Origin: Escherichia coli
GTDB taxonomy: Bacteria > Pseudomonadota > Gammaproteobacteria > Enterobacterales > Enterobacteriaceae
Assembly (NCBI RefSeq): GCF_048403405.1
Contig: NZ_CP183131.1
Direction: 5' to 3' (one strand)
DNA length: 64,000 nucleotides
Below, in pieces: positions 1 through 60,500 of this stretch; position 1 is the first letter of the stretch; the number at the start of each line of letters is the position of its first letter. The notes under the pieces were generated by a model, which ran no database searches, was not told where the DNA came from, and saw only the letters and a program-made list of their open reading frames with translations. The position numbers and the translations under genes were made by a program.

Positions 1-1007
1 CCAACGTTCAGAATCGAGCGGAACTGGCTCCAGGATGTCCTGTATGCGACTTTCCTTGGTGCGAACAGGCTGAACCTTCTCAAGTTCAAACCCGTCGATC
101 CCGTGGGAAAGCGCAACAACACAAAGACGCTTGCGGCGCTCAATAACCCCAAACTCATTGCCGTCGAGAATGCGCTCTTGTAGGGAGTAACCCAACGAAG
201 AGAGCACCGAACGAATCACTTCCATCGAAGCGGTGTTCTGGTACTCAGGCACGTTCTCAATCAGCACAACGGCTGGGTTTAGCGCTTCTACGAATTGCAG
301 GAAGTTGAAGAACATGGCACCTGCCGCCTCATGCGATTCGGCAAACTCCAACTTGTTCTTACTGCGACCTGACTTTGACGCGCCGGTACACGGTATGCCC
401 CCCATCAAAACATCCACCTGTGGTGGGCGTTTGCTGAGATTCACAGCCTGGATTGGCGATTCGATAACAATAGAATCTTCGTTCCAAAGCTCCGGGTTAT
501 TTGCCAAAGACGAATCGAGATATTTCCCTTCCATCTCCACGGCCACAGATATGGCACTGGCAATTCCCGCCTTGTGAAAACCGGCGTGAATCGCTTTATC
601 AAGCACACCACCCCCATGAAAGAGGCTGCATACCGAAAGCGATTCTCCATTCTCCAGCTTACTGATAAGCCGGTTGACGCGCTCGATCACTCGCTCTTGT
701 TGATGGTGAGCAGAGATCACAATTGCGCCGTTACGGATGAACACGCGGAGCATCTCTACACCGTCAAAAACGGTAGCAAGCTCCTGCACGGTCAGATCGA
801 TGATTGGAGACACCCGGCCATTGCGCTCGCGCTTACTGATGGTGAACTTACCCTCCTCTTTGACGCGAAGCACAACCTGGGAATCTTTCAGCTCCAGATC
901 ATACTTCATGCCAGGATAGTAACCTTCACGCAGTAGCTTTTGGCCTTCCAGCCAGACGCGCTTCTTGCCTCGATGTTCTCCTAACTTGGTGTTTACGATA
1001 GTAGCCA
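1..1007 (-). CDS. DNA cytosine-5 methyltransferase (Dcm-like), 3' end cut by window edge
   Basis: Manual translation from ATG at 1005-1007 (RBS AGGAGAGAGC upstream) stays open to position 1; motifs FHGGGVL (motif I), GGIPCTGASKSG (motif IV with Pro-Cys), IENVPEY (motif VI); ~100 aa N-terminal extra domain. Confidence 0.7.
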
Positions 1008-1085
1008 TGAGCTCTCTCCTTTCGGTTGAGAGGCCACTACCGTCCCAATCGGGAAGTAATGGCCCCGATGGGTTTAAAGTGGTTC

Positions 1086-1388
1086 TCAGTTCACAGCGAT
1101 GCCGTGAGACTGAATGGCATTAGCAAAGCCAGCCATTTGTTCAGGGAAGGTGTAGCGGTTGATGTCCTGGCTGCGAGCCAGATTGACATGCACCTTCTTC
1201 ACCTTCGTTTCGTCAGAGTCGTACTTTTCAAGCGCCAGCTTCTCAGCTTCTTCCGGATCTCGGCCCAGCGAGTAGGCGTAAATCACAGAGGTGAAGCCAA
1301 GTCCTGAGCCGAATGCGTAGACTTGTTTCTCGAAATGGACGTCAGCGAAATAGATGCTGAATCCGGATTTGAGGTTATGTTTTTCCAT
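1086..1388 (-). CDS. hypothetical protein (100 aa)
   Basis: ORF track 1086..1469; start moved to ATG at 1386-1388 with RBS GGAGTG; preceded by conserved leader shared with module at 10066..10186. Confidence 0.5.
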   Translation of the reverse strand: MEKHNLKSGFSIYFADVHFEKQVYAFGSGLGFTSVIYAYSLGRDPEEAEKLALEKYDSDETKVKKVHVNLARSQDINRYTFPEQMAGFANAIQSHGIAVN

Positions 1389-1465
1389 GATGCACTCCAA
1401 ATAGTTTGGGGGCGCACCACGTCCCGAACCGGGCGGATGCACCCGGTTTAGGGTTAGTAGATTGC
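1389..1465 (-). promoter_or_regulatory. partial copy (proximal half) of the conserved 121-bp upstream module
   Basis: GGCGCACCACGTCCCGAACCGGGCGGATGC shared with 10066..10186 and 14901..15021, a few substitutions. Confidence 0.6.
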
Positions 1466-1810
1466 TCAAGCTGTTACGCCAGCCTGAGCCTTTATTGCTT
1501 CAAGCACGATCTCTGCTTCCTTGATAGAACCAGTGCTGTACAGCTTATGCAGCACCCGGCCAAGGTTCACAGAGATCTTTTCTTTCACTTGGAGATACTT
1601 GACATAGAAGTCATACAGTTTCTCCGCCTGCTCAAGGTGGGACATGCTCTCAACGGGAATGGTATTCCCTGGATTGCAGTACCACTTTCCGAGCACCTTT
1701 TGTACAAATCCCTCTTTGTCTCCTACGAACTGATTTGTGCCAAACACCCCACTGGTTGGTGAGCGTTGAATAACAGAAATCGGATTCGCAAAGCTGGCAA
1801 GAGTAGTCAT
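1466..1810 (-). CDS. hypothetical protein (114 aa)
   Basis: ORF track 1466..1867; start moved to internal ATG with RBS GGAGCC. Confidence 0.5.
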   Translation of the reverse strand: MTTLASFANPISVIQRSPTSGVFGTNQFVGDKEGFVQKVLGKWYCNPGNTIPVESMSHLEQAEKLYDFYVKYLQVKEKISVNLGRVLHKLYSTGSIKEAEIVLEAIKAQAGVTA

Positions 1811-1878
1811 AGTTGTGGCTCCATGTTTGTCAGGGAACCACCAGCCCGAGGGGCAGTGATCCCCCAAGGGTTATGTAG

Positions 1879-1950
1879 AATGCTGTTTGTTTGGGGAGGC
1901 CAGCTACCTCACTATTCACTCTCGACAGAGAGCAAAATCTTGCTTTCCGA
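1879..1950 (-). promoter_or_regulatory. degenerate copy (distal half) of the conserved upstream module
   Basis: GAATGCTGTTTGTTTGGGGAGGCCAGCTACCTCAC...CAAAATCTTGCTTTCC matches core of 10129..10190. Confidence 0.5.
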
Positions 1951-1959
1951 GGGGCACAA

Positions 1960-1977
1960 ACTTTCACATGTGAAAGT
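1960..1977. promoter_or_regulatory. 18-bp perfect palindrome ACTTTCACATGTGAAAGT (parS-like)
   Basis: Read directly; one of five copies of core CTTTCACATGTGAAAG. Confidence 0.6.
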
Positions 1978-2001
1978 CGATGCCACTGGGAAAGCAGGGG
2001 G

Positions 2002-2355
2002 TTAACCCCCCGCTTTAACCCGCGCTAAGCGGTTTAGGATAGACTTCACGCCTTCCCTTACTCCAGATGGATCGTAACCTGCTTCATCGCAGCAGACCAC
2101 AAATGAGAATGGATGTACCTCATCGGACATCACCCAAGCCATCGTTTCCTGCTTGATTTCACTTCCAGCTCGACCATCAGCAAGGACTCTAAGGCTATGC
2201 CATAAAAGCCCATCACGTAACTGCCTTACCTCATCATCAGTCCATTCAGGCTTTGGCTCAAATGGAATGACTTCTGCGGTCTTCGGCTCTTCATCCAGGA
2301 AGAAAAGCGGCAGCTCAAGCTGGTTTTCCTTCTGGATCATCTTCACTGCATTCAT
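2002..2355 (-). CDS. hypothetical protein (117 aa)
   Basis: ORF track 2002..2421; start moved to MNAVKM with RBS AAAAGGAGTCACC. Confidence 0.5.
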   Translation of the reverse strand: MNAVKMIQKENQLELPLFFLDEEPKTAEVIPFEPKPEWTDDEVRQLRDGLLWHSLRVLADGRAGSEIKQETMAWVMSDEVHPFSFVVCCDEAGYDPSGVREGVKSILNRLARVKAGG

Positions 2356-2423
2356 GGTGACTCCTTTTACGGGCACCATGCCCCCACAGGGGCATGAAGC
2401 CCCCAGTGGGGTTACAGTCATAG

Positions 2424-2615
2424 TTACTTCACGCCTGCCAGTTGAGAATTGATGTTCTCTTCCAGCCAGCCTTGAAGCGATTCAAGGTCACGTTTGTCTT
2501 CCGTATTGCTGGCTTTACGTGCATCTTCCGACACAGCGCTCAACATGGCGTTAGCCTCAGCAAGTGATTCAACATTGTTCCCAGGGAACACAATCGTTTG
2601 ACTGTGATCTTTCAT
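2424..2615 (-). CDS. hypothetical small protein (63 aa)
   Basis: ORF track 2424..2651; RBS AAGGAGAAGACC before internal ATG. Confidence 0.4.
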   Translation of the reverse strand: MKDHSQTIVFPGNNVESLAEANAMLSAVSEDARKASNTEDKRDLESLQGWLEENINSQLAGVK

Positions 2616-2672
2616 GGTCTTCTCCTTTGAGAATGGAGGACCGTCTCCCATCAGGAAGAGCGGCCCCGTGGG

Positions 2673-2948
2673 TTAAAAGTAAAAATCCTCCAGCTCTTCA
2701 TGGTCAGGCTTTCGCTCAACTGGTCGAAGCAACTCAGCTTCATCAGCGAACTCAAGCTCAGGATGAAAAGCAGGATGAAATCCTCGATGCCAGACTGGAC
2801 GGTCATTATCGAGGTCTAAGTAGCAGTGCCTCCCACTGGCTGGGTGATAGCAGTAAAGCCACTGTCTACCACTAACGGTAAACGGCTTCTCTGCACCTCC
2901 ACATGCCGGTACAAGGTTATCTGCTGCTATATGCGCTACAGCATCCAT
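2673..2948 (-). CDS. hypothetical protein with acidic-aromatic C-terminus (..ELEDFYF)
   Basis: ORF track 2673..2996; start moved to ATG after GAGGA; C-terminal tail read from track. Confidence 0.45.
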   Translation of the reverse strand: MDAVAHIAADNLVPACGGAEKPFTVSGRQWLYCYHPASGRHCYLDLDNDRPVWHRGFHPAFHPELEFADEAELLRPVERKPDHEELEDFYF

Positions 2949-2952
2949 AGGA

Positions 2953-3405
2953 TCAGTCCTCATCTTCGTCATCACGAACACAAAGATCACGAGCAACTAT
3001 TTCCGCAGCTATCAACGCATAATCGTTGCCCTGCCAGAACCACCGCTCCGCCAGCTCATAGGCTTCGCTGGAAGGTTCGCCATAACCATGAGCCACCACG
3101 TAATCGTGGAACACTTCATGATCAAATGCCTTGCCATCAGCTTCCATGAACCAACCGACAGGGCACTCCAGAATGCGATGCCTTACGACATCTCGCTCTG
3201 AATACCCCTCTCTGACGGCTTGCTCCAACATTTCCCGCGACATACCAGGAGGAGTGATGATCTCTATGCTGATCCCGTCACTTCCTGCAAGATTGTCCTC
3301 GTATGGAAGACCGGCAAGTGTAAGGTGATTGCGCTTGCACCAGCCGATGGTCCGAAGTATCCGACTTTTGTCAGACTCCCTGGCCGTGTATCGGTTAAGC
3401 TGCAT
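2953..3405 (-). CDS. hypothetical acidic protein (150 aa, C-terminus DDEDED)
   Basis: ORF track 2953..3462; RBS GGAGGTG before MQLNRY. Confidence 0.5.
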   Translation of the reverse strand: MQLNRYTARESDKSRILRTIGWCKRNHLTLAGLPYEDNLAGSDGISIEIITPPGMSREMLEQAVREGYSERDVVRHRILECPVGWFMEADGKAFDHEVFHDYVVAHGYGEPSSEAYELAERWFWQGNDYALIAAEIVARDLCVRDDEDED

Positions 3406-3784
3406 AGCCACCTCCAGCACACTCCCCATCTTCGATTTCACTTCCGAGCTCGACCATTCCAATCAGGTCAAGCTGGGTCATGTCCGAATCCAGAGAGCAG
3501 TCAATTGCTGACTGAATGATGCCTTTGTGGGCCAAGCCTAAAACGGACTTAATAGTCGAAAGCAGAGACTCGGCTTCGCTCTCGATTTGCTCCAGAATGT
3601 CTTTCCATTCCCAGTGCTCAAACGGTTGCCAAACGACCAGATCCTCAGGCTCGTCTCCCCGTTCGACACACTCAGACAAATACTCATAAGCCTTGCACCA
3701 ATTCTCTTGTTGGCCCAGTTCACTGAGCACTAGAGCGGTAGCATGACCGTATGCGATTTGTTCAACTTTGGTATTGATAGACAT
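3395..3784 (-). CDS. hypothetical highly acidic protein (129 aa)
   Basis: ORF track; strong RBS GAGGAGAAACACT before ATG. Confidence 0.55.
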   Translation of the reverse strand: MSINTKVEQIAYGHATALVLSELGQQENWCKAYEYLSECVERGDEPEDLVVWQPFEHWEWKDILEQIESEAESLLSTIKSVLGLAHKGIIQSAIDCSLDSDMTQLDLIGMVELGSEIEDGECAGGGYAA

Positions 3785-3845
3785 AGTGTTTCTCCTCGTA
3801 ATGGATAGAGGAGCCCCACCCGCAGGAAAGGCTCCTCCGGATGGG

Positions 3846-4076
3846 TTAAATTTCCAAGGTCACATCGGTTTTTGCTTTAGCGCAGCAAACCAACACTTCC
3901 CCTTCTTTGACAAATGCGATGGGCGTCTCGTCATAGGCCACTTGACCTTCGAGTAGACGAACCCGGCACATGCCACAAAAGCCACTGCGACAATGCGTTT
4001 CAACAGTGAGGCCTTTGCTTTCGATTTGCGCCAACAGCACATTGTTGCTGGCTTGAAGTTGTACGTTCATGGTCAC
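3846..4076 (-). CDS. 2Fe-2S ferredoxin-like small protein
   Basis: CRSGFCGMC (C-x4-C-x2-C) plus downstream CC; RBS AAAGGAGCG. Confidence 0.6.
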   Translation of the reverse strand: MTMNVQLQASNNVLLAQIESKGLTVETHCRSGFCGMCRVRLLEGQVAYDETPIAFVKEGEVLVCCAKAKTDVTLEI

Positions 4077-4135
4077 GCTCCTTTGTTGTTGATGAGCGCG
4101 ACCAATCCCCTCCGGGATGTCACGCCCCGGTTGGG

Positions 4136-5020
4136 CTACTCAGCAAGTGCATAGACACCTACCTCGATGCGAATAAAGAACCTGGCATCTTGAAGAACTT
4201 GCCTGACCTTTGCTTGCCAGTGGTTGTTCTCTCGATGCTTTGCGTAGGGTTCAATCTCTTTGTAAATCTGCTCCAGCTTCAACGTTTTCCCCTGTAGGGT
4301 TCGGCGTATTGCAGCTTTCCACGTAGTCGAAACCATATTGGTTGCTCGACGGTGTACGGCAGCAAGAAGACAGAGCGATGAGGCAACGTCGTTACGACGA
4401 AACACCAACAGCTTTTCATGGGCGATACGCACCAGCTTCCCGGAATACTGAGTTCGGTCACTCACACAGTTGTGCTGTGTTTTGATGATCTCATCCACCA
4501 GCTTCCCAGGTGCGATACGTTCCACAAGGCTGGACAGGTTGAAATAATCCCCATCGCGCCTCAGGTTTCCCATGAGGATTCCGTAATGCCCTCCTCGCTC
4601 ACAGGCGTCATGAATATTCATAACGGCCAGCTCAAGGGCTTCAACGAACTCAGGCAAATTCATGCGGCTCATATCCCATTTGTTGGGCTCGCCCCACTGC
4701 TTACCTGAATACTGGATCATGTCCCAGTAAGGAGGGTGCCACCAGATCAGGTGTGCAGGCTCTCCGAGGAACGAAAGGAAGTCATCCCGCAACAGGTTGA
4801 ACCCCTGATGCAAGTCTGTCCCTTTGAAACGGACACCAAGTTCATTGGCAACGTCGATGCTAGAGCCACCCCCAACACTTGGGTCTGCCACCAGCCCGTT
4901 CGGCTTTCTCATGTAAGACTCAATGAAGTCTTTAACGATAAAGCCCGAGCAGTTGCCTCGGTACTTGTTGTTTCCGTAAGGCCCCCTGTTTTCGTAGGAG
5001 CATACTGATGATTTGAACAT
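4136..5020 (-). CDS. DNA amino-methyltransferase (N6A/N4C type, motif I before PPY)
   Basis: ADPSVGGGSS (motif I-like) then WWHPPYWD (motif IV PPY); RBS GGAGGA before MFKSS; ORF track 4136..5059. Confidence 0.6.
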   Translation of the reverse strand: MFKSSVCSYENRGPYGNNKYRGNCSGFIVKDFIESYMRKPNGLVADPSVGGGSSIDVANELGVRFKGTDLHQGFNLLRDDFLSFLGEPAHLIWWHPPYWDMIQYSGKQWGEPNKWDMSRMNLPEFVEALELAVMNIHDACERGGHYGILMGNLRRDGDYFNLSSLVERIAPGKLVDEIIKTQHNCVSDRTQYSGKLVRIAHEKLLVFRRNDVASSLCLLAAVHRRATNMVSTTWKAAIRRTLQGKTLKLEQIYKEIEPYAKHRENNHWQAKVRQVLQDARFFIRIEVGVYALAE

Positions 5021-5093
5021 GGCGTCCTCCATCATAGATGGGGCGCACCATGCTCCCATCAGGGGCCGGTTCGCCCCTGGTTAGGGATTAAGA

Positions 5094-5594
5094 TCAAGCG
5101 TTATCTGCATACCACCAGCTAAGGCGATTGCAATCACGAAAGAAGGTTGCTTCATCAGGAGCCTTCATCATGACCACATCACCTTCGCAGTAGGTGCATA
5201 GCTCAAGCGTTGCTTCATTTTTCCAAAAGGCACTGCACCCCGATTCTTGATACACAACCTCCCATTTGGGATGTCGCAAGTACCGATGGAAGAAATCGAG
5301 AGTGTCACCATAAGGGAAGTTGAAGCGCTCCATCACTGAACCATTTTCTGTCAGTTCAGGTTTAACCTTGCCGGTTTTCAAGCGCTTCTTGATGATGCGC
5401 TGAACCCAACGAAGTCGTGCAAACAGCCGATTGGTGTCTTTCTCGTACCACTGGGGATTACGCTTGCTCCAGTAGAGCTTGGCGAAGATTTCCCCGGACA
5501 AATCCTTCATCTGGTTTTCGTTGAGCTCATCAAGAAAACGTCGAGAAGGTTTGTCGTAGTCAAGAACTGCTTCCAAAGCTGATAGGTTTTTCAT
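5094..5594 (-). CDS. hypothetical protein (166 aa)
   Basis: ORF track; RBS AAGGAGTCCCT. Confidence 0.55.
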   Translation of the reverse strand: MKNLSALEAVLDYDKPSRRFLDELNENQMKDLSGEIFAKLYWSKRNPQWYEKDTNRLFARLRWVQRIIKKRLKTGKVKPELTENGSVMERFNFPYGDTLDFFHRYLRHPKWEVVYQESGCSAFWKNEATLELCTYCEGDVVMMKAPDEATFFRDCNRLSWWYADNA

Positions 5595-5684
5595 AGGGAC
5601 TCCTTATTGCGATTGCGGAGCCCCGTCCCCTCAGGGCTATCGGAGCCCCATAGGGTTAATTAGGGTTAATGGTTGAACGGCGAT

Positions 5685-6224
5685 TTATCGAGGGTTGGTG
5701 AATCGAATGGCTTTACCAACGAAATCGGCCATCAGTCGATTCCCAGTAGAGCTGAAATAGCTCTGCCACTCTTTCCAACCACCAACGGATTCCACCGAGC
5801 TTGGAGACTCGAAGATACCCCAGATACGCATTTCACAACCTCGTTGCAACACTCGGTTTACCTGGTCAACCAAGTATTCCTTGTTCTGCAATGAAGAGAG
5901 GTTGCAAGGCATCTGCATGATCAGCTTTTCAGCTTGCTCGAAGTCGATTTTTTCAATCAACCCCGTGCGGGTATCCACAGAGAATGGAACCACCTGTTGA
6001 CCGTGGTTAGACCACAACCAATGGGTGATATAGATCGGATTAACGCCAACTTCCGCTGGCACCAATACGCTGCCGCAAGACCGCAACAGCCAGACCAGAC
6101 GTAAACCATCGAATCGATCCAGAGACTCCACATCGGTAGTGATGTCATCCTGGTAGATTTCAGGCAGCTTATGTTCGGCGGCGAGAGAGATCATTACGGA
6201 TTTGAGATTGTTCAGATGAGACAT
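5685..6224 (-). CDS. hypothetical protein (179 aa)
   Basis: ORF track; RBS AAGGAGCACAC; first gene downstream of a module copy. Confidence 0.55.
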   Translation of the reverse strand: MSHLNNLKSVMISLAAEHKLPEIYQDDITTDVESLDRFDGLRLVWLLRSCGSVLVPAEVGVNPIYITHWLWSNHGQQVVPFSVDTRTGLIEKIDFEQAEKLIMQMPCNLSSLQNKEYLVDQVNRVLQRGCEMRIWGIFESPSSVESVGGWKEWQSYFSSTGNRLMADFVGKAIRFTNPR

Positions 6225-6290
6225 GTGTGCTCCTTAAAGTAACTTGGGCACACAGAGCCTGTCAGGCGCAGTGCGCCCTTAGGCTGAGGT

Positions 6291-6365
6291 TGAATGCTGT
6301 TTGTTTTTGGCGACCAGCTATCGCACGTTTCGCCCTCAGAGAGGACAAAATTCACTTTCTCAGCA
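6291..6365 (-). promoter_or_regulatory. degenerate copy (distal half) of the conserved upstream module
   Basis: GAATGCTGTTTGTTTTTGGCGACCAGCTATCGCACGTTTCGCC nearly identical to core at 10129..10165. Confidence 0.55.
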
Positions 6366-6488
6366 ACCCTCAATGAAGGCCTCTGAGAAAGTGGGAGGGT
6401 ATTCCCTCCTCACTTTGATTGTTCCACGAGAGCTGTGTGAACAGGAACGCTCAAACTGCCCTTTTCGGGTGCAAAGCTCAAAGACGCA

Positions 6489-6833: not shown

Positions 6834-6867
6834 AAATAAAAACGGCCACCCCCGAAGGGATAGCCGT
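6834..6867 (-). terminator. intrinsic terminator after vWA gene
   Basis: Minus-sense ACGGCUAUCCC-UUCG-GGGGUGGCCGU followed by UUUUUAUUU. Confidence 0.6.
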
Positions 6868-6885
6868 TTGTCGTTTCACTTCCTG

Positions 6886-23716: not shown

Positions 23717-24209
23717 TTTTCACAGTCCCCCAGTAACGTGAGTCGAAGCTGAATGGGCTTTTGCCCATAAACCAGTAGTTATTCTCTTTCAGCGTGGTCT
23801 TGCCGTAAAAGTGGCTCTCTGGCAGATGTAGTTTCCCTGCGAGCTGGAGCCCCTCTCCGACGACATCACCATTGACGGTGATCTTCCACTTATCGTTGAT
23901 CTCGACTTTATCCCCCGGCATACCGGTGAGGATTTTGACCATGCGAGTCCCGTCCTTGTAGAAAGGCTGCATGTTCTTGGCTTGGAAGGCGTAAACAGCT
24001 CCCCTCTCCAGAGTTTGGTCGTTCAGATCAATGAGGAAGAAGGTGTAACCCGGCAGGCACTTCTCCTGTTGTGGATCAATGCCAATACGGTAGCGGCTGG
24101 CAAAGGCCGCACCAGCAGCCCAAAGAACCAGTAGTGTCACACCGGCCTTAACCCCGAAGCGCTTCCAGGATTCCTTTTTGACGAAATACTTCTTGAGTGG
24201 AAAATTCAT
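23679..24209 (-). CDS. trhF: signal peptidase I-like conjugative peptidase (TraF/TrhF)
   Basis: S26 peptidase box SFDSRYWG; N-terminal TM; RBS GAGGTG. Confidence 0.8.
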   Translation of the reverse strand: MNFPLKKYFVKKESWKRFGVKAGVTLLVLWAAGAAFASRYRIGIDPQQEKCLPGYTFFLIDLNDQTLERGAVYAFQAKNMQPFYKDGTRMVKILTGMPGDKVEINDKWKITVNGDVVGEGLQLAGKLHLPESHFYGKTTLKENNYWFMGKSPFSFDSRYWGTVKNDQIIGRAYPLF

Positions 24210-24523
24210 TTCAGCACCTCATCAGGGAGGTACACGTCACTTGGAGCACCGACGACAGCACTTGCGTCAAGGACCAAATAACCTGCGTCTTTCAACTTCA
24301 AAATTGCGTCATTGGTCTTGACCATCAGTCTTTCAACTTCCTCCTGAGAGGCACCAGCGGGATACGCCGACGCCACTTTAGCGAAGTCAACCACGACCAC
24401 TGGCGGGGTTTGATTCAAACGCTGATGGATGCTTGCCGTTTGTTCGCTCATCACGTAGTAGCTACCGCCGAAGCCACCAGCGGCACCGAGAATGGCGGCG
24501 ATTGCGATTGATTTAATGTCCAT
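24206..24523 (-). CDS. TrbI-like inner-membrane conjugation protein
   Basis: N-terminal TM and ..YLVLDASAVVGAPSDV.. resembling F TrbI ..VILVSPAVVQGAPDIT.. Confidence 0.5.
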   Translation of the reverse strand: MDIKSIAIAAILGAAGGFGGSYYVMSEQTASIHQRLNQTPPVVVVDFAKVASAYPAGASQEEVERLMVKTNDAILKLKDAGYLVLDASAVVGAPSDVYLPDEVLK

Positions 24524-24537
24524 TACTGTCTCCCTGG

Positions 24538-26985
24538 TTATGCAGCCTGCTGACGGCTTCGCATCACGGCCTTGATTGCCTCAGGAATGCTCATGCCTTG
24601 TTTCACAAACTGGTCGATGGCGTTAACGTCCACCGGATCGGTCGAATAAAGCAGCTTCTGGAAGTCGCCCACTATCAAGCGTCCGACGCCCATGCCGCTC
24701 TTCGATTTGATAAAGATTTCTGAGTACACGCCCTGGATGGTGTGTACCGTCTTGAGGGTGTGGAACCCGCCCTCTGAAAGGGTCAGACGACCGCTACGTT
24801 TAACAGATTCCACGGTTTCTTCGGTTTGGCCGAGCAAGTACATGCTGGCCGAGTTCTCCGCGATGGCGCGGCCCACTGCGTTCTCATAGAGGTCGTTGAT
24901 GGACTGCGTTGCAATGACAACGGAGCCACCGTACTTACGGAATTTGCGGTAGGCATGTTCCATGAAGACCGAGACCTCGCCCTCTTTGAGCAGGTCCCAG
25001 GCCTCATCCACGATGACGACTTTCTTGCGGTTACGTTCACCCAGGAATACTTCTTGCTGGATCTGGTAAATAAGCTGGAGCAGTACAACCTGACGCAAGT
25101 GCTTACGCCCTTGCAGTTCATCGAGCTCCAGTACAGTGAACTGGTTCTGGAAGCTGACGTTGTTCTTGCGAGAGAAGTATTTCCCGTAGCTACCTTTCGA
25201 CGTAAAGGCGTAGAGCTGCTGACCAATATCCTTGAGGCGCTGGTCGTTTTCTTCTTCCAGACAGCGCTCAGCGATGTCGTCAACCTTCATCTCTTTACCT
25301 TTCTCTTCCCACAGGCGAGAAAGGACCTGTTTCAGCGCAGAGATTTGCCATTCATCCAGCAAGCCTTTGGCCGACGCCATTGCACAAACGAGGCTGACAA
25401 TCGCGTCTTCTTCGTCCTCGTAGTTCTGTATGAGCTCGAACGGGTTGAGGCAGACGTGCGTTCCTTCTTCAAAGTGAACGAAGTCGCCATTGAGCATTTC
25501 CGACAGCTTCTGGTAGGACTTACCGGCATCAATAACCCAGACCTGAGCACCCTCGGACAAGTAGGAAAAAATCAGTTCGTTGGTAAGGAACGATTTACCC
25601 GAGCCGGATTCGGCTGCGATCACCAGGTTTTTGTTGGTATTACTGTCGTGAAGAGACAGACTCATGAGCTGGCCGTTGCGGGAAATCAGCGCTGCATGAT
25701 AGGTCCCGGTCCCCTTCCATTCCCCAAACACCGGCAGGACCACAGCCGCCTGCTCGGTTGTCATGGTCTTGTAGCGGAATAGGTCTCGCACTGCATCCCG
25801 GTCTGTACAGAATGGCAGGCAGTTGAGGAACATCGGCAGAGCAACGAACTTATCCTCCATCAGCTCGAACCGAGATTCACGCCAGATGTTTCGTGCGGCC
25901 ATCGCCGCCGCTTCAACACGTTCTTTGGTTGGAGCAAATAAAACCACCGAGTAGGTGATCTTGACTGGCTTAGCCCCCTCTTTCATGGACTCATAGAGAG
26001 TGTCGAAGCTCTCCTTTTTGTCCGCCAGCACCGGCACGAATTTGAGCATCGGCCCGTAGGCTTGGTTTACAGTGAACTGGCGTTTGCGCTCCAGAGTGTT
26101 TTTCGTGCTTTCTGCCTCAGGGAAAAACACATTGGTCACAACCATGTAGTTTTCTTTGATGCTGGAGTTGCCGCCGCTGAGATCCCCGGCATAGGTCAAC
26201 GCATCACCAAAGTAGAAAACGTCAGGCAGCTTTTTCGCTGACATGACTTTCGCGTGGTAGTCCCCCAGCCTGATGCCGTTCTTGCTGACTTCCACATCAG
26301 TGCCGTAATCGAAGATTTGCTCGCAGATGGGCTTATCCATCTCCCAATCCACAGAGTCATGTCGCCATGAAGCATCCGGCCCCCAATTCAGGATGGTGCT
26401 CATGATCCGGATGTAGTTCACCGCCGTCATTGTGCGGGGACGCAGACCAACGGTTTGAAGCGATGATTCGACCTTCGTGCGAAGCTGTGCGAGCTGCTGG
26501 AGTTCGCTTTCAGTCGGGTTATTGTTCTTGATGGGGACTTTGCACGTAACGAACAGCTTGAGGTCTTGGATCAAGCCATTGTCGTAGATACCTTTGTTGG
26601 TCTTGGCAAATATGCGTTCTGTCGTGTGGTGCTGGAGGAAGTTAATCCGTTCCTTGATGACAGATGTCAGCAGCTCGTGACGGAAGCCATCACGCAACCC
26701 CATCATCCGGTACATCTCCTGATTGATGTCCGGGGAGCGGAACAGAACAAACTGGAGCGTAGTCTTCGACGGGAACTCCTGATTCAGGAAACCGTTCATT
26801 CGCTCCTGAACTTTTTCATCGGCACCACACAGGGGCTCACACATGAAACCAAAGCCTGCACTGTGGTCATCCATAAGGAAGACATGATCGTCTTCGTCAT
26901 AGGCCAGGACAGGAATAATCCCGGCAGCTCGCAAGTGCTCCGGGATCAACGTTTCTTCGAGTTTCTTTTTGATGGTTACGATCAT
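24538..26985 (-). CDS. traC: conjugative transfer ATPase TraC (VirB4-like)
   Basis: 815 aa; Walker A AAESGSGKS; gene order. Confidence 0.9.
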   Translation of the reverse strand: MIVTIKKKLEETLIPEHLRAAGIIPVLAYDEDDHVFLMDDHSAGFGFMCEPLCGADEKVQERMNGFLNQEFPSKTTLQFVLFRSPDINQEMYRMMGLRDGFRHELLTSVIKERINFLQHHTTERIFAKTNKGIYDNGLIQDLKLFVTCKVPIKNNNPTESELQQLAQLRTKVESSLQTVGLRPRTMTAVNYIRIMSTILNWGPDASWRHDSVDWEMDKPICEQIFDYGTDVEVSKNGIRLGDYHAKVMSAKKLPDVFYFGDALTYAGDLSGGNSSIKENYMVVTNVFFPEAESTKNTLERKRQFTVNQAYGPMLKFVPVLADKKESFDTLYESMKEGAKPVKITYSVVLFAPTKERVEAAAMAARNIWRESRFELMEDKFVALPMFLNCLPFCTDRDAVRDLFRYKTMTTEQAAVVLPVFGEWKGTGTYHAALISRNGQLMSLSLHDSNTNKNLVIAAESGSGKSFLTNELIFSYLSEGAQVWVIDAGKSYQKLSEMLNGDFVHFEEGTHVCLNPFELIQNYEDEEDAIVSLVCAMASAKGLLDEWQISALKQVLSRLWEEKGKEMKVDDIAERCLEEENDQRLKDIGQQLYAFTSKGSYGKYFSRKNNVSFQNQFTVLELDELQGRKHLRQVVLLQLIYQIQQEVFLGERNRKKVVIVDEAWDLLKEGEVSVFMEHAYRKFRKYGGSVVIATQSINDLYENAVGRAIAENSASMYLLGQTEETVESVKRSGRLTLSEGGFHTLKTVHTIQGVYSEIFIKSKSGMGVGRLIVGDFQKLLYSTDPVDVNAIDQFVKQGMSIPEAIKAVMRSRQQAA

Positions 26986-54392: not shown

Positions 54393-54883
54393 TCTTCACT
54401 AAGCAGGAACGCCCAGCGCTCTTCTGCTTTTTCTGGGTTGTCTTTGGCCTGTTTGATCATGATCTCGGCGGCGTTAAAGCCTACCTCTCCACTGAACCGG
54501 CCCCATGAATGGCTATGCCACTCGCGCATCACACTTCGGCCAAGCGATGCAAGTTCTGGACTTACACCCTCATGGAGGGCATAGAGCTCCCAAGCATCCC
54601 ACCCGTATCGTAATAGGTTGTGCCCTGGGGCGTTAAAGGCCTGAGCAGCCTTGAACCGCTCTCCAGGCTCCTTCCCTCTAACATCCACACCCTGGAGCAC
54701 CAACCCCATTACCACTTCAATGACCGGCTCGCGTTGCTTCTTTGCCAGCTCGATGGCAGCCACCAGCATTGCTTTGGCGTCAGCAAATTTCCCATGCCCT
54801 TGGCACATACCGCAGGTTTCTTTGGAAGGGGAAAAGTCATAAACACCGGAACCAGCACAGAGGCGGCATGTCATGTCAATCAT
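54377..54883 (-). CDS. protein with DnaJ-type zinc finger (two CxxCxGxG repeats)
   Basis: CRLCAGSG and CGMCQGHG; RBS AGGAGAGAAG; ORF track 54377..54901. Confidence 0.5.
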   Translation of the reverse strand: MIDMTCRLCAGSGVYDFSPSKETCGMCQGHGKFADAKAMLVAAIELAKKQREPVIEVVMGLVLQGVDVRGKEPGERFKAAQAFNAPGHNLLRYGWDAWELYALHEGVSPELASLGRSVMREWHSHSWGRFSGEVGFNAAEIMIKQAKDNPEKAEERWAFLLSEEWMVE

Positions 54884-55550
54884 GGGCTCTTCTCTCCTCA
54901 TACTCTTCGATGCGCTCTTTCAGACGCTGAACCACTGGTGCGAGCTCAGGGATAGCTTCCGCTTCCTCAAGCGTGTATCGCTTGTCTTCCTGGTAATCGA
55001 CTATTTGAGGAGGCCTTGGCTGTTTAGGGAACTCAGCAAAGTCATTCAGCGACATCGAGGTAGGAAGTCCTCCTTCAATCTCACCTTTTTCGTTGAGTGA
55101 CTGGGTGACGATAAGCTGTGTTCCGCCCACCTCGGTATCAAAGCGGTCATCAAAGCGCTCACCGATAGTCCAGCCGCCACGGCCAAGAACACAGGTCGTA
55201 CTCATACGTAGGCGATTGAATGCTTTAGCGTCATCCCAGTTCAAAGGATTTTCATCCATGAGGAAAAAAGGCGCTTCGTCCCGAACGAACACCTTGGACT
55301 TGGCGTTATCGAAGATCGGCCCAAACACCCCCTGCTGGAGGTATGGTTCGACCTTCTCTGCAAGATCCTGGTGCCCTTGAGAACGCAGCGCCTCATAGAG
55401 CTGGGTGATTGTTTGTTTGCCGGTGCCCGGAAGGCAGGACAATACTGTCTGCTTTTCCTCGTCACTCAGGCTTACCATTCTGGACAAAAAGCTGACTACC
55501 AGCTCGTTGTGCCCATCGACCGTTTCAATGTTGAGCTTGTTCTCGTCCAT
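54876..55550 (-). CDS. hypothetical protein (224 aa)
   Basis: ORF track 54876..55583; RBS GAGGAA. Confidence 0.45.
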   Translation of the reverse strand: MDENKLNIETVDGHNELVVSFLSRMVSLSDEEKQTVLSCLPGTGKQTITQLYEALRSQGHQDLAEKVEPYLQQGVFGPIFDNAKSKVFVRDEAPFFLMDENPLNWDDAKAFNRLRMSTTCVLGRGGWTIGERFDDRFDTEVGGTQLIVTQSLNEKGEIEGGLPTSMSLNDFAEFPKQPRPPQIVDYQEDKRYTLEEAEAIPELAPVVQRLKERIEEYEERRAHD

Positions 55551-60194: not shown

Positions 60195-60500
60195 TTATCC
60201 CACTCTATTGTAAACAAGACATTTTTATCTTTTATATTCAATGGCTTATTTTCCTGCTAATTGGTAATACCATGAAAAATACCATGCTCAGAAAAGGCTT
60301 AACAATATTTTGAAAAATTGCCTACTGAGCGCTGCCGCACAGCTCCATAGGCCGCTTTCCTGGCTTTGCTTCCAGATGTATGCTATTCTGCTCCTGCAGC
60401 TAATGGATCACCGCAAACAGGTTACTCGCCTGGGGATTCCCTTTCGACCCGAGCATCCGTATGAGACTCATGCTCGATTATTATTATTATAGAAGCCCCC

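Follow-up and report, generated by a model that had tools for sequence, protein, structure and literature searches.

Why does a conjugative plasmid carry a lone gene for a small ferredoxin in the midst of DNA metabolism genes, and which enzyme would such a protein serve? The question is raised by a 64,000-nt stretch of Escherichia coli DNA (contig NZ_CP183131.1 of assembly GCF_048403405.1; hereafter, the window). Its first 12 kb match hundreds of conjugative plasmids of the IncC (IncA/C2) group, typed MOBH and MPF_F, at 100% identity. Within this region, an open reading frame (ORF) on the minus strand (3846-4076) had been read from the sequence alone as encoding a 76-amino-acid (aa) protein with the C-x4-C-x2-C...C spacing of plant-type or YfaE-like ferredoxins, which might support some radical or redox enzyme from another part of the element. 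The analysis presented here assigns the protein to the YfaE family, places its gene in the AcaCD-dependent conjugation regulon, and points to the class Ia ribonucleotide reductase (RNR) of the host as its likeliest partner.

A YfaE-type ferredoxin gene on an IncC plasmid

Both the ORF and the cysteines noted by the sequence-only reading are present. Translation from the GTG at 4076 yields 76 aa, and translation from the ATG at 4070, which is the RefSeq start, yields 74 aa; an AAGGAG Shine-Dalgarno (SD) sequence is spaced 7 nt from the ATG but only 1 nt from the GTG. The 74-aa coding sequence (3846-4070, minus strand; protein sequence MNVQLQASNNVLLAQIESKGLTVETHCRSGFCGMCRVRLLEGQVAYDETPIAFVKEGEVLVCCAKAKTDVTLEI) corresponds to vcrx101 of pVCR94deltaX (NC_023291; 77663-77887), which occupies the same position, is annotated as yfaE, and has a product 93% identical at the aa level. 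Its cysteines follow the pattern C27-x4-C32-x2-C35-x26-C62, with C63 adjoining C62, and the codons of the four putative [2Fe-2S] ligands were read directly at 3990-3992 (C27), 3975-3977 (C32), 3966-3968 (C35), and 3885-3887 (C62), all on the minus strand. On the E. coli plasmid pECO-c85f, with which the window is collinear from plasmid position 98824 (two mismatches up to window position 60201), RefSeq names the protein "class I ribonucleotide reductase maintenance protein YfaE" (WP_001102700.1), and GenBank records have "ferredoxin." The yfaE annotation already stands on hundreds of IncC resistance plasmids. Since the gene is annotated in RefSeq, the finding is known at the level of annotation, and the identification itself is routine: the sequence is labeled yfaE, and its transcription was tabulated in a 2014 supplement.

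Consistently with this annotation, the Pfam search that the sequence-only reading had proposed as a check returned PF00111 (Fer2) over residues 9 to 67 with 41.1 bits (gathering cut-off, 21). The YfaE equivalog model of NCBIfam (NF007985) scored 92.7 bits against a cut-off of 75, with the next best family at 34.6 bits, and in BLASTP, 69 residues aligned without gaps, at 46% identity, to the YfaE encoded in the nrdA-nrdB-yfaE locus of E. coli K-12. When 1.8 billion representative proteins were searched exhaustively, 1441 relatives were recovered at an E value of ≤0.001. The spacing C-x4-C-x2-C, whose conservation had likewise been put forward as a check, occurs in 158 of the 163 homologs gathered, most of them with a further cysteine 26 residues on; the remaining five are mainly frameshifted or truncated fragments. 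In an alignment of 45 sequences, the four ligand cysteines, L13, G30, and G42 are invariant, and R28, G33, Y46, P50, L60, and C63 are nearly so, with Y46, P50, and L60 kept in the plasmid protein. The architecture is that of the short stand-alone YfaE class (about 75 to 110 aa; here, 74 aa), with the x26 spacing and a G-x-V-x-Y-x3-P-[LI]-A motif. Of the two ferredoxin subtypes offered by the sequence-only reading, YfaE-like is thus the right one, as judged by the equivalog model, the x26 spacing, and nearest relatives that are linked to nrdB.

An AlphaFold2 model built from the 45-sequence alignment has a pLDDT (predicted local distance difference test) of 97.6. All top 50 Foldseek matches of this model in the Protein Data Bank (PDB) are [2Fe-2S] ferredoxins or ferredoxin domains, with query-normalized template modeling (TM) scores of 0.67 to 0.82; the best solved structures match at a TM of ~0.75 (0.72 to 0.78) and a root mean square deviation of ~2 Å. 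The predicted fold is accordingly that of a plant-type, beta-grasp ferredoxin. Between plasmid lineages, the ratio of nonsynonymous to synonymous substitution rates (dN/dS) is 0.12 to 0.28, which shows purifying selection. The gene is therefore not a chance ORF; it is under selection and codes for a YfaE-type ferredoxin, which, by its ligand set, would bind a [2Fe-2S] cluster. The protein is an ordinary member of its family in every sequence-based respect examined, and its gene neighborhood is the one feature that sets it apart.

Plasmid and chromosomal YfaE share, besides their gap-free alignment, the same length class (74 versus 84 aa) and the same C-x4-C-x2-C-x26-CC pattern. They differ in that the N terminus of the plasmid protein is ~10 residues shorter and that it has two consecutive cysteines at the position of the fourth ligand, where E. 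coli YfaE has three. The genes also differ in setting, since the plasmid copy does not follow nrdB but lies in an AcaCD-activated operon of a conjugative plasmid, beside a methyltransferase-like gene. Plant and cyanobacterial [2Fe-2S] ferredoxins, such as that of spinach (1A70), have the same beta-grasp fold and ligand order, but their identity to the plasmid protein is only 26 to 33%, and the latter is ~23 residues shorter. Aligned to spinach ferredoxin, it has a three-residue deletion before the fourth cysteine (x26 versus x29 in plants) that marks the YfaE group. The partners of the two types are different as well: photosystem I and ferredoxin-NADP reductase for the plant type and NrdB for the YfaE type.

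Candidate redox partners on the plasmid

The partner enzyme that the sequence-only reading expected elsewhere on the element did not emerge from window scans or plasmid annotations. No NrdA or NrdB homolog was found in the window by tblastn with the E. coli proteins (best E value, 0.33), no window ORF of ≥150 aa contains a CxxxCxxC motif, and neither an RNR nor a radical S-adenosylmethionine (SAM) gene is annotated on the whole of pVCR94deltaX or at 70 to 168 kb of pECO-c85f. Just two plasmid proteins, both encoded outside the window, are plausible Fe-S candidates. The first is an 817-aa protein (vcrx113) annotated as "PAPS reductase" (PAPS, 3'-phosphoadenosine-5'-phosphosulfate), whose gene lies ~2.4 kb past the left edge of the window (pECO-c85f 93926-96379, equivalent to 23927-26380 of our locus L003). 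Over its N-terminal 440 residues, it matches models of DndC and YbdN/PRK06850, with scores that stay under the cut-offs; the DndC matches reach 119.8 bits with TIGR03183 (equivalog cut-off, 290) and an E value of 1e-41 with PADLOC. This DndC-like protein may be a DNA-modifying enzyme. The second, of 371 aa, also belongs to the PAPS reductase family and is encoded near repA (pVCR94 3406-4521).

These candidates bear on an alternative that we regard as unlikely, namely, that the ferredoxin donates electrons to a plasmid enzyme in a DNA-modification or anti-restriction pathway, be it vcrx113, the second PAPS reductase family protein, the methyltransferase-like vcrx100 encoded directly upstream of yfaE, or one of vcrx098, vcrx099, vcrx102, and vcrx103. 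DndC, whose models vcrx113 matches as described above, is a [4Fe-4S] protein. The vcrx113 gene shares the strand of yfaE and, in pVCR94deltaX, lies ~6 kb downstream of it; it likewise depends on AcaCD in pVCR94 (PMC4207636). The gene order vcrx099-vcrx100-yfaE holds in elements whose YfaE proteins are only 49 to 59% identical, and a tusA-like sulfur-carrier gene lies a few kilobases downstream in the Vibrio plasmid pVPH2. Nonetheless, the DndC score of vcrx113 is far under the equivalog cut-off, and the two genes are distributed differently. Records of plasmids with a DndC-like protein number 2654, many of them from E. coli, Salmonella, and Enterobacter and 334 from Klebsiella, against 1571 records with yfaE-like genes, 749 of which are from Klebsiella; by these counts, which were compared per organism rather than as record lists, the two are not co-distributed outside IncC. 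The synteny breaks in loci L014, L006, and L015, and IncHI1B and IncU plasmids carry yfaE without any of the operon neighbors. Furthermore, the conventional, SAM methyltransferase-like fold of vcrx100 requires no redox input, and we know of no [2Fe-2S] ferredoxin that is a component of Dnd or PAPS reductase systems. The absence of an RNR or radical-SAM gene from the plasmid, together with the mismatched distribution of the DndC-like gene, thus makes host class Ia RNR the likeliest partner, not a plasmid enzyme.

Two more ideas were set aside. As an obligatory partner, vcrx100 was rejected on the grounds that L014, L008, and IncHI1B plasmids have yfaE without it. The 224-aa "thymidylate kinase" of RefSeq (54876-55550, minus strand) has no sequence support from Pfam, NCBIfam, or the PDB and was not used as evidence of nucleotide metabolism; the same protein is named "thymidylate kinase" in pECO-c85f and "hypothetical protein" in pVCR94deltaX.

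Gene neighborhoods of YfaE relatives

The neighborhoods of 80 relatives were collected from GTDB representative genomes, one per species, with a search built on nine closer sequences. Fourteen of these loci encode C-terminal ferredoxin domains of oxidoreductases of 367 to 935 aa. Among the 66 stand-alone homologs, 60 lie 24 to 179 bp downstream of nrdB on the same strand; two, both from marine metagenome-assembled genomes, are embedded in an IncC-like backbone (DUF3150, von Willebrand factor A [VWA], vcrx098, etc.), and four are at contig edges or elsewhere. A profile built from the 60 nrdB-linked proteins scores the IncC protein at 96.6 bits, in line with E. coli YfaE (110.7) and the phage OBP protein (106.7), against 64 to 79 bits for the ferredoxin domains of fused reductases. 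Across the contexts in which the YfaE family occurs, its one recurring associate is class Ia RNR, which chromosomes and phage OBP encode next to it and which, for the plasmids, the host would have to supply. NrdB is 70 to 91% identical to the E. coli protein across the gamma- and betaproteobacterial loci recovered (including those of Aeromonas, Serratia, Edwardsiella, and Shewanella), a degree of conservation that fits a helper of broad host range.

On plasmids, intact yfaE genes at ≥80% identity occur in ~700 IncC/IncA-type records, and a lone yfaE recurs in at least three separate MOBH groups (IncC, pAQU-like, and IncHI1B), with different neighbors. The trio vcrx099-vcrx100-yfaE is syntenic in IncC plasmids, the Aeromonas locus L007, pVPH2, and L006 and L015. 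The pAQU-like Vibrio plasmid pVPH2 (MOBH/MPF_F), whose YfaE is 49% identical, shares the complete order vcrx099-vcrx100-yfaE-vcrx102-vcrx103. L006 and L015 lack vcrx102 and vcrx103; L014 lacks both of these as well as vcrx099 and vcrx100, and L008 is rearranged. IncHI1B/IncFIB- and IncU-typed Klebsiella plasmids also carry a stand-alone gene annotated as yfaE, with a product 45 to 46% identical to that of IncC. Unlike the IncC gene, it stands at the head of an unrelated operon, divergent from relE/parE, and has no neighbors in common with IncC, i.e., none of vcrx099, vcrx100, vcrx102, and vcrx103. No RNR gene was found within 6 kb of the lone yfaE genes of pVPH2 and the Klebsiella plasmids.

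Mobile YfaE homologs are also known from phages. Pseudomonas phage OBP gp210 (PHROG 844, auxiliary metabolic genes) is 40% identical to the plasmid protein and presumably serves deoxynucleoside triphosphate (dNTP) synthesis for the element's own replication. It differs from the plasmid gene in that the phage has its own nrdB immediately upstream of the ferredoxin gene, whereas the plasmid has the ferredoxin alone and would need host NrdB.

As to the Klebsiella loci themselves, the lone yfaE encodes 90 aa (5953-6225 of the IncU-typed locus L010 and 5926-6198 of the IncHI1B/IncFIB locus L011) and opens an operon of small unknown genes. The divergent gene encodes a RelE/ParE toxin, and a site-specific methyltransferase gene and a type II restriction endonuclease gene are nearby. 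This type of yfaE is present on several hundred Klebsiella plasmid records.

Expression under AcaCD control

In pVCR94deltaX, an AcaCD peak obtained by chromatin immunoprecipitation with exonuclease treatment (ChIP-exo) and a 29-bp motif (75267-75295) were mapped upstream of vcrx098, the first gene of the predicted operon vcrx098-vcrx103 (Carraro et al. 2014, PMC4207636, Table S3). Transcriptome sequencing in the same study gave vcrx101 expression values of 374 in the wild type, 1 in the acaCD deletion mutant, and 3151 in the complemented strain upon induction, with significance in both comparisons (Dataset S1). The equivalent motif lies at the operon promoter in the window (6448-6476, minus strand), and its core inverted repeat CCCGAAAAGGGC (6458-6469) is similar to the inverted repeat GCCCTAAAAGGGC that was defined by experiment (Kiss et al. 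2015, PMC4605294). With one mismatch allowed, the pattern CCCNAAAAGGGC matched the window eight times, versus 1.4 matches expected, and always on the minus strand. Neither a sigma-70-like promoter nor a U-tract terminator was found on this strand between the AcaCD box and vcrx103, and the preceding VWA operon ends in a strong terminator (6840-6869). Taken with the published operon data, the AcaCD box makes the ferredoxin gene part of the conjugation regulon, i.e., off without AcaCD and on with the transfer genes.

The AcaCD regulon touches nucleotide pools in at least one further way. A YfbR-type 5'-deoxynucleotidase (NCBIfam equivalog score, 128.5 bits versus a cut-off of 122) is encoded outside the window at pECO-c85f 92844-93449 (L003 22845-23450). 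The yfbR-like gene belongs to another AcaCD-activated operon, vcrx114-vcrx119, and its expression rises from 50 to 6412 (PMC4207636).

The eight core matches, at 6458, 12544, 12961, 20728, 33452, 37730, 38401, and 56277, are on the strand of the transfer genes, and several agree with published pVCR94 promoters, e.g., those of traN and vcrx087. A stable hairpin, AAGUGAGGAGGGAAUACCCUCCCACUU (6388-6416, minus strand; -17.7 kcal/mol for the 46-nt stretch folded), sits at the expected AcaCD-dependent transcription start of vcrx098, ~35 nt past the motif, from which a leader of ~190 nt would extend. The 5' rapid amplification of cDNA ends (5'-RACE) signal of the vcrx098 promoter was reported as not clear (PMC4207636), which a structured 5' end might explain.

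RNA hairpins over the yfaE ribosome-binding site

The 65 nt that separate yfaE from the methyltransferase-like gene form a leader predicted to fold into two hairpins (-32.3 kcal/mol; z score, -4.4). The one proximal to yfaE, with the stem GGUCGCGCUC...GGAGCGUGACC (4071-4103, minus strand), pairs the yfaE SD sequence and ends directly 5' of the AUG; a 41-nt construct containing it folds at -19.1 kcal/mol (z score, -5.4). The other is a GC-rich hairpin directly after the stop codon of the methyltransferase-like gene (4107-4135, minus strand), which is followed by no U-tract and was not called as a terminator. Equivalent yfaE leader hairpins are predicted in pVPH2 (-17.5 kcal/mol), L006 and L015 (-16.8 kcal/mol), and L007 (-12.7 kcal/mol), i.e., in plasmids whose YfaE proteins are only 49 to 80% identical. 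These were folded sequence by sequence, the MAFFT alignment of the upstream leaders being too poor for a formal covariation count; their stem pairs differ (GGUCGCGCUC/GGAGCGUGACC, GUCAUGCUCCU/AGGAGUAUGAC, and GGUCAUUC/GAAUGACC) and amount to compensatory changes. Conservation of a hairpin over the yfaE ribosome-binding site (RBS) suggests that the ferredoxin is translated under deliberate restraint or conditionally.

Similar structures recur along the operon. Two hairpins lie between yfaE and vcrx102 (3792-3845, minus strand), the second of which pairs the GAGGAG SD sequence of vcrx102; the 61-nt stretch 3785-3845 folds at -31.3 kcal/mol (z score, -4.3). Each spacer of vcrx098-vcrx103, of 60 to 90 nt, contains GC-rich hairpins without U-tracts (3792-3845, 4071-4135, 5021-5093, and 5595-5684, minus strand). 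The hairpin nearest the next gene pairs its SD sequence, so that the RBS would be masked before vcrx099, vcrx100, and vcrx102 as well. The spacer hairpins may thus be a general design of this array for translational restraint or mRNA stability.

A possible role in re-activation of host NrdB

The established role of E. coli YfaE goes back to Wu et al. 2007 and to Hristova et al. 2008; the latter study reportedly found that this maintenance pathway helps to set the active share of cellular NrdB. YfaE reduces the diferric cluster of radical-less NrdB, whereupon O2 regenerates the diferric-tyrosyl radical cofactor (PMC4009431). According to the literature cited, NrdB reduction and radical regeneration have been demonstrated for E. 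coli YfaE alone. The IncC plasmid has no RNR of its own, from which we infer that plasmid YfaE acts in trans on host NrdB. We consider it somewhat probable that the plasmid ferredoxin reduces inactive host NrdB, restores its tyrosyl radical, and raises dNTP supply while the plasmid is transferred and becomes established. The family of the protein, its ligand set and fold, the purifying selection on it, its control by AcaCD, and the lack of a plasmid RNR are shown, whereas cluster binding, host NrdB as the target, and the benefit to the plasmid are inferred.

Mechanistically, plasmid YfaE would take electrons from flavin or ferredoxin reductases of the host and reduce the met (diferric, radical-less) NrdB of class Ia RNR to the diferrous form. 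Reaction of diferrous NrdB with O2 would then rebuild the diferric-tyrosyl radical, and the radical-loaded, active fraction of RNR would rise. In this manner, dNTP output could increase without the plasmid carrying the ~3.5-kb nrdAB genes. As for timing, AcaCD would turn on the transfer genes and the recombination genes ssb, bet, and exo at the same time as yfaE. Since the operon is silent without AcaCD and strongly induced with it, the extra dNTP capacity would arrive when the plasmid needs DNA synthesis, i.e., for the replacement strand in the donor and for the complementary strand and copy-number establishment in the new host. More tentatively, and with rather less confidence than for IncC YfaE itself, we propose that MOBH-type plasmids (IncC/IncA, pAQU-like, and IncHI1B) boost host dNTPs with minimal cargo: a 74-aa ferredoxin, expressed with the transfer genes under a conserved RBS-masking hairpin, that would re-arm NrdB during replication into a new cell.

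Several observations weigh against NrdB re-activation as the role of the plasmid gene. The hosts all have their own yfaE next to nrdAB, so that it is hard to see what another copy is needed for. The hallmark position of yfaE, directly after nrdB, is here taken by a methyltransferase-like ORF as the upstream gene. In the profile scores given above, the gap between plasmid proteins and the ferredoxin domains of unrelated reductases is modest, so that partner specificity is unreadable from the sequence. Tightly limited translation, as suggested by the leader hairpin, fits a catalytic helper and also a minor role. In the literature searched, no paper discusses this gene or any plasmid-borne yfaE, and no experiment on it was found. 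Finally, vcrx101 is absent from the candidates of a screen by TraDIS (transposon-directed insertion sequencing) for exclusion factors on pVCR94, which did not probe the function in question.

Another explanation is a generic small ferredoxin or a leftover, captured once from an nrdAB-yfaE locus, that feeds host redox enzymes non-specifically or contributes nothing measurable. In its favor, no obvious partner is linked to the gene, database entries include rare alleles with frameshifts or truncations (P0007-P0015), and the literature searched reports no phenotype. This explanation is improbable, however, in view of the dN/dS values, the retention of all four ligands together with Y46, P50, and L60, and the persistence of intact copies in the ~700 IncC/IncA-type records and in different contexts across at least three MOBH groups. 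A conserved RNA structure for translational control and dedicated AcaCD-dependent expression also argue against it.

We find it very unlikely that the protein manipulates host RNR or a host or phage defense, e.g., by competing with host YfaE so as to tune or lower dNTPs together with the YfbR-like enzyme or by countering a dNTP-depleting defense, since this idea, to which the co-induced, deoxynucleoside monophosphate-degrading YfbR homolog and an array rich in the orphan methyltransferase and recombination genes typical of anti-restriction or establishment functions lend some appeal, is speculation for which no precedent was found, PADLOC returned no matches, and the protein keeps all normal cluster-binding features with nothing in its sequence that hints at an inhibitory variant. 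A related idea, a leading-region or anti-defense function, gained no support from the IncC SOS paper, which makes no mention of a leading region, or from PADLOC, which gave no match for the ferredoxin. The first gene of pVCR94deltaX is mobI. The origin of transfer (oriT), which we take to lie just upstream of mobI, would place yfaE ~43 kb away in one direction and 77 kb in the other.

Re-activation of host NrdB thus remains the role that we favor. IncC plasmids rank with the main carriers of genes for carbapenemases and cephalosporinases, and no role has been assigned to most of the backbone genes that AcaCD induces in them. Re-activation of host RNR by the ferredoxin would mean that plasmids, like phages, reprogram host nucleotide supply, and that one gene of 225 bp is enough for this. 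The gene would be to plasmids what auxiliary metabolic genes are to phages, and it might help to determine how efficiently a major family of multidrug resistance plasmids becomes established; vcrx101 would then offer a simple genetic handle on whether dNTP supply limits plasmid establishment. Otherwise, it is an ordinary, already annotated ferredoxin of little wider consequence. In either case, the protein is a plasmid-borne orphan YfaE member, ordinary in itself and in a mildly interesting context, and why conjugative plasmids repeatedly carry a "ferredoxin without its reductase" under conjugation control is a small question that lends itself to direct testing.

Neighboring genes and other features of the window

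The yfaE gene is part of a long minus-strand run that comprises genes for an AAA ATPase, ssb, bet, exo, DUF3150, and VWA/CobT-like proteins, small genes, dcm, the DndC-like gene, yfbR, and a primase-like gene. The operon starts with the vcrx098 homolog (5685-6224, minus strand; 179 aa), followed on the same strand by the homologs of vcrx099 (5094-5594; 166 aa) and vcrx100 (4136-5020; 294 aa), the latter directly upstream of yfaE. On the other side of yfaE are the homologs of vcrx102 (3395-3784; 129 aa) and vcrx103 (2953-3405; 150 aa), the last gene of the predicted operon. The products of vcrx098, vcrx099, vcrx102, and vcrx103 have no family match. The product of the vcrx100 homolog, an orphan, resembles DNA methyltransferases of the N6/N4 type and has a DpnI_C-like winged helix-turn-helix at its C terminus; its HPPYW stretch can be read as a putative catalytic motif IV, where D/N/S-PPY would be expected. 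RefSeq names this protein hypothetical. Across the IncC-like and pAQU-like elements compared, it is more conserved (76 to 83%) than YfaE (49 to 80%). Collinearity of the window with pECO-c85f ends at 60202, and pECO-c85f has ISAs29 (IS21-like) nearby; the plasmid of the window probably differs from pECO-c85f by an insertion or deletion near this position.

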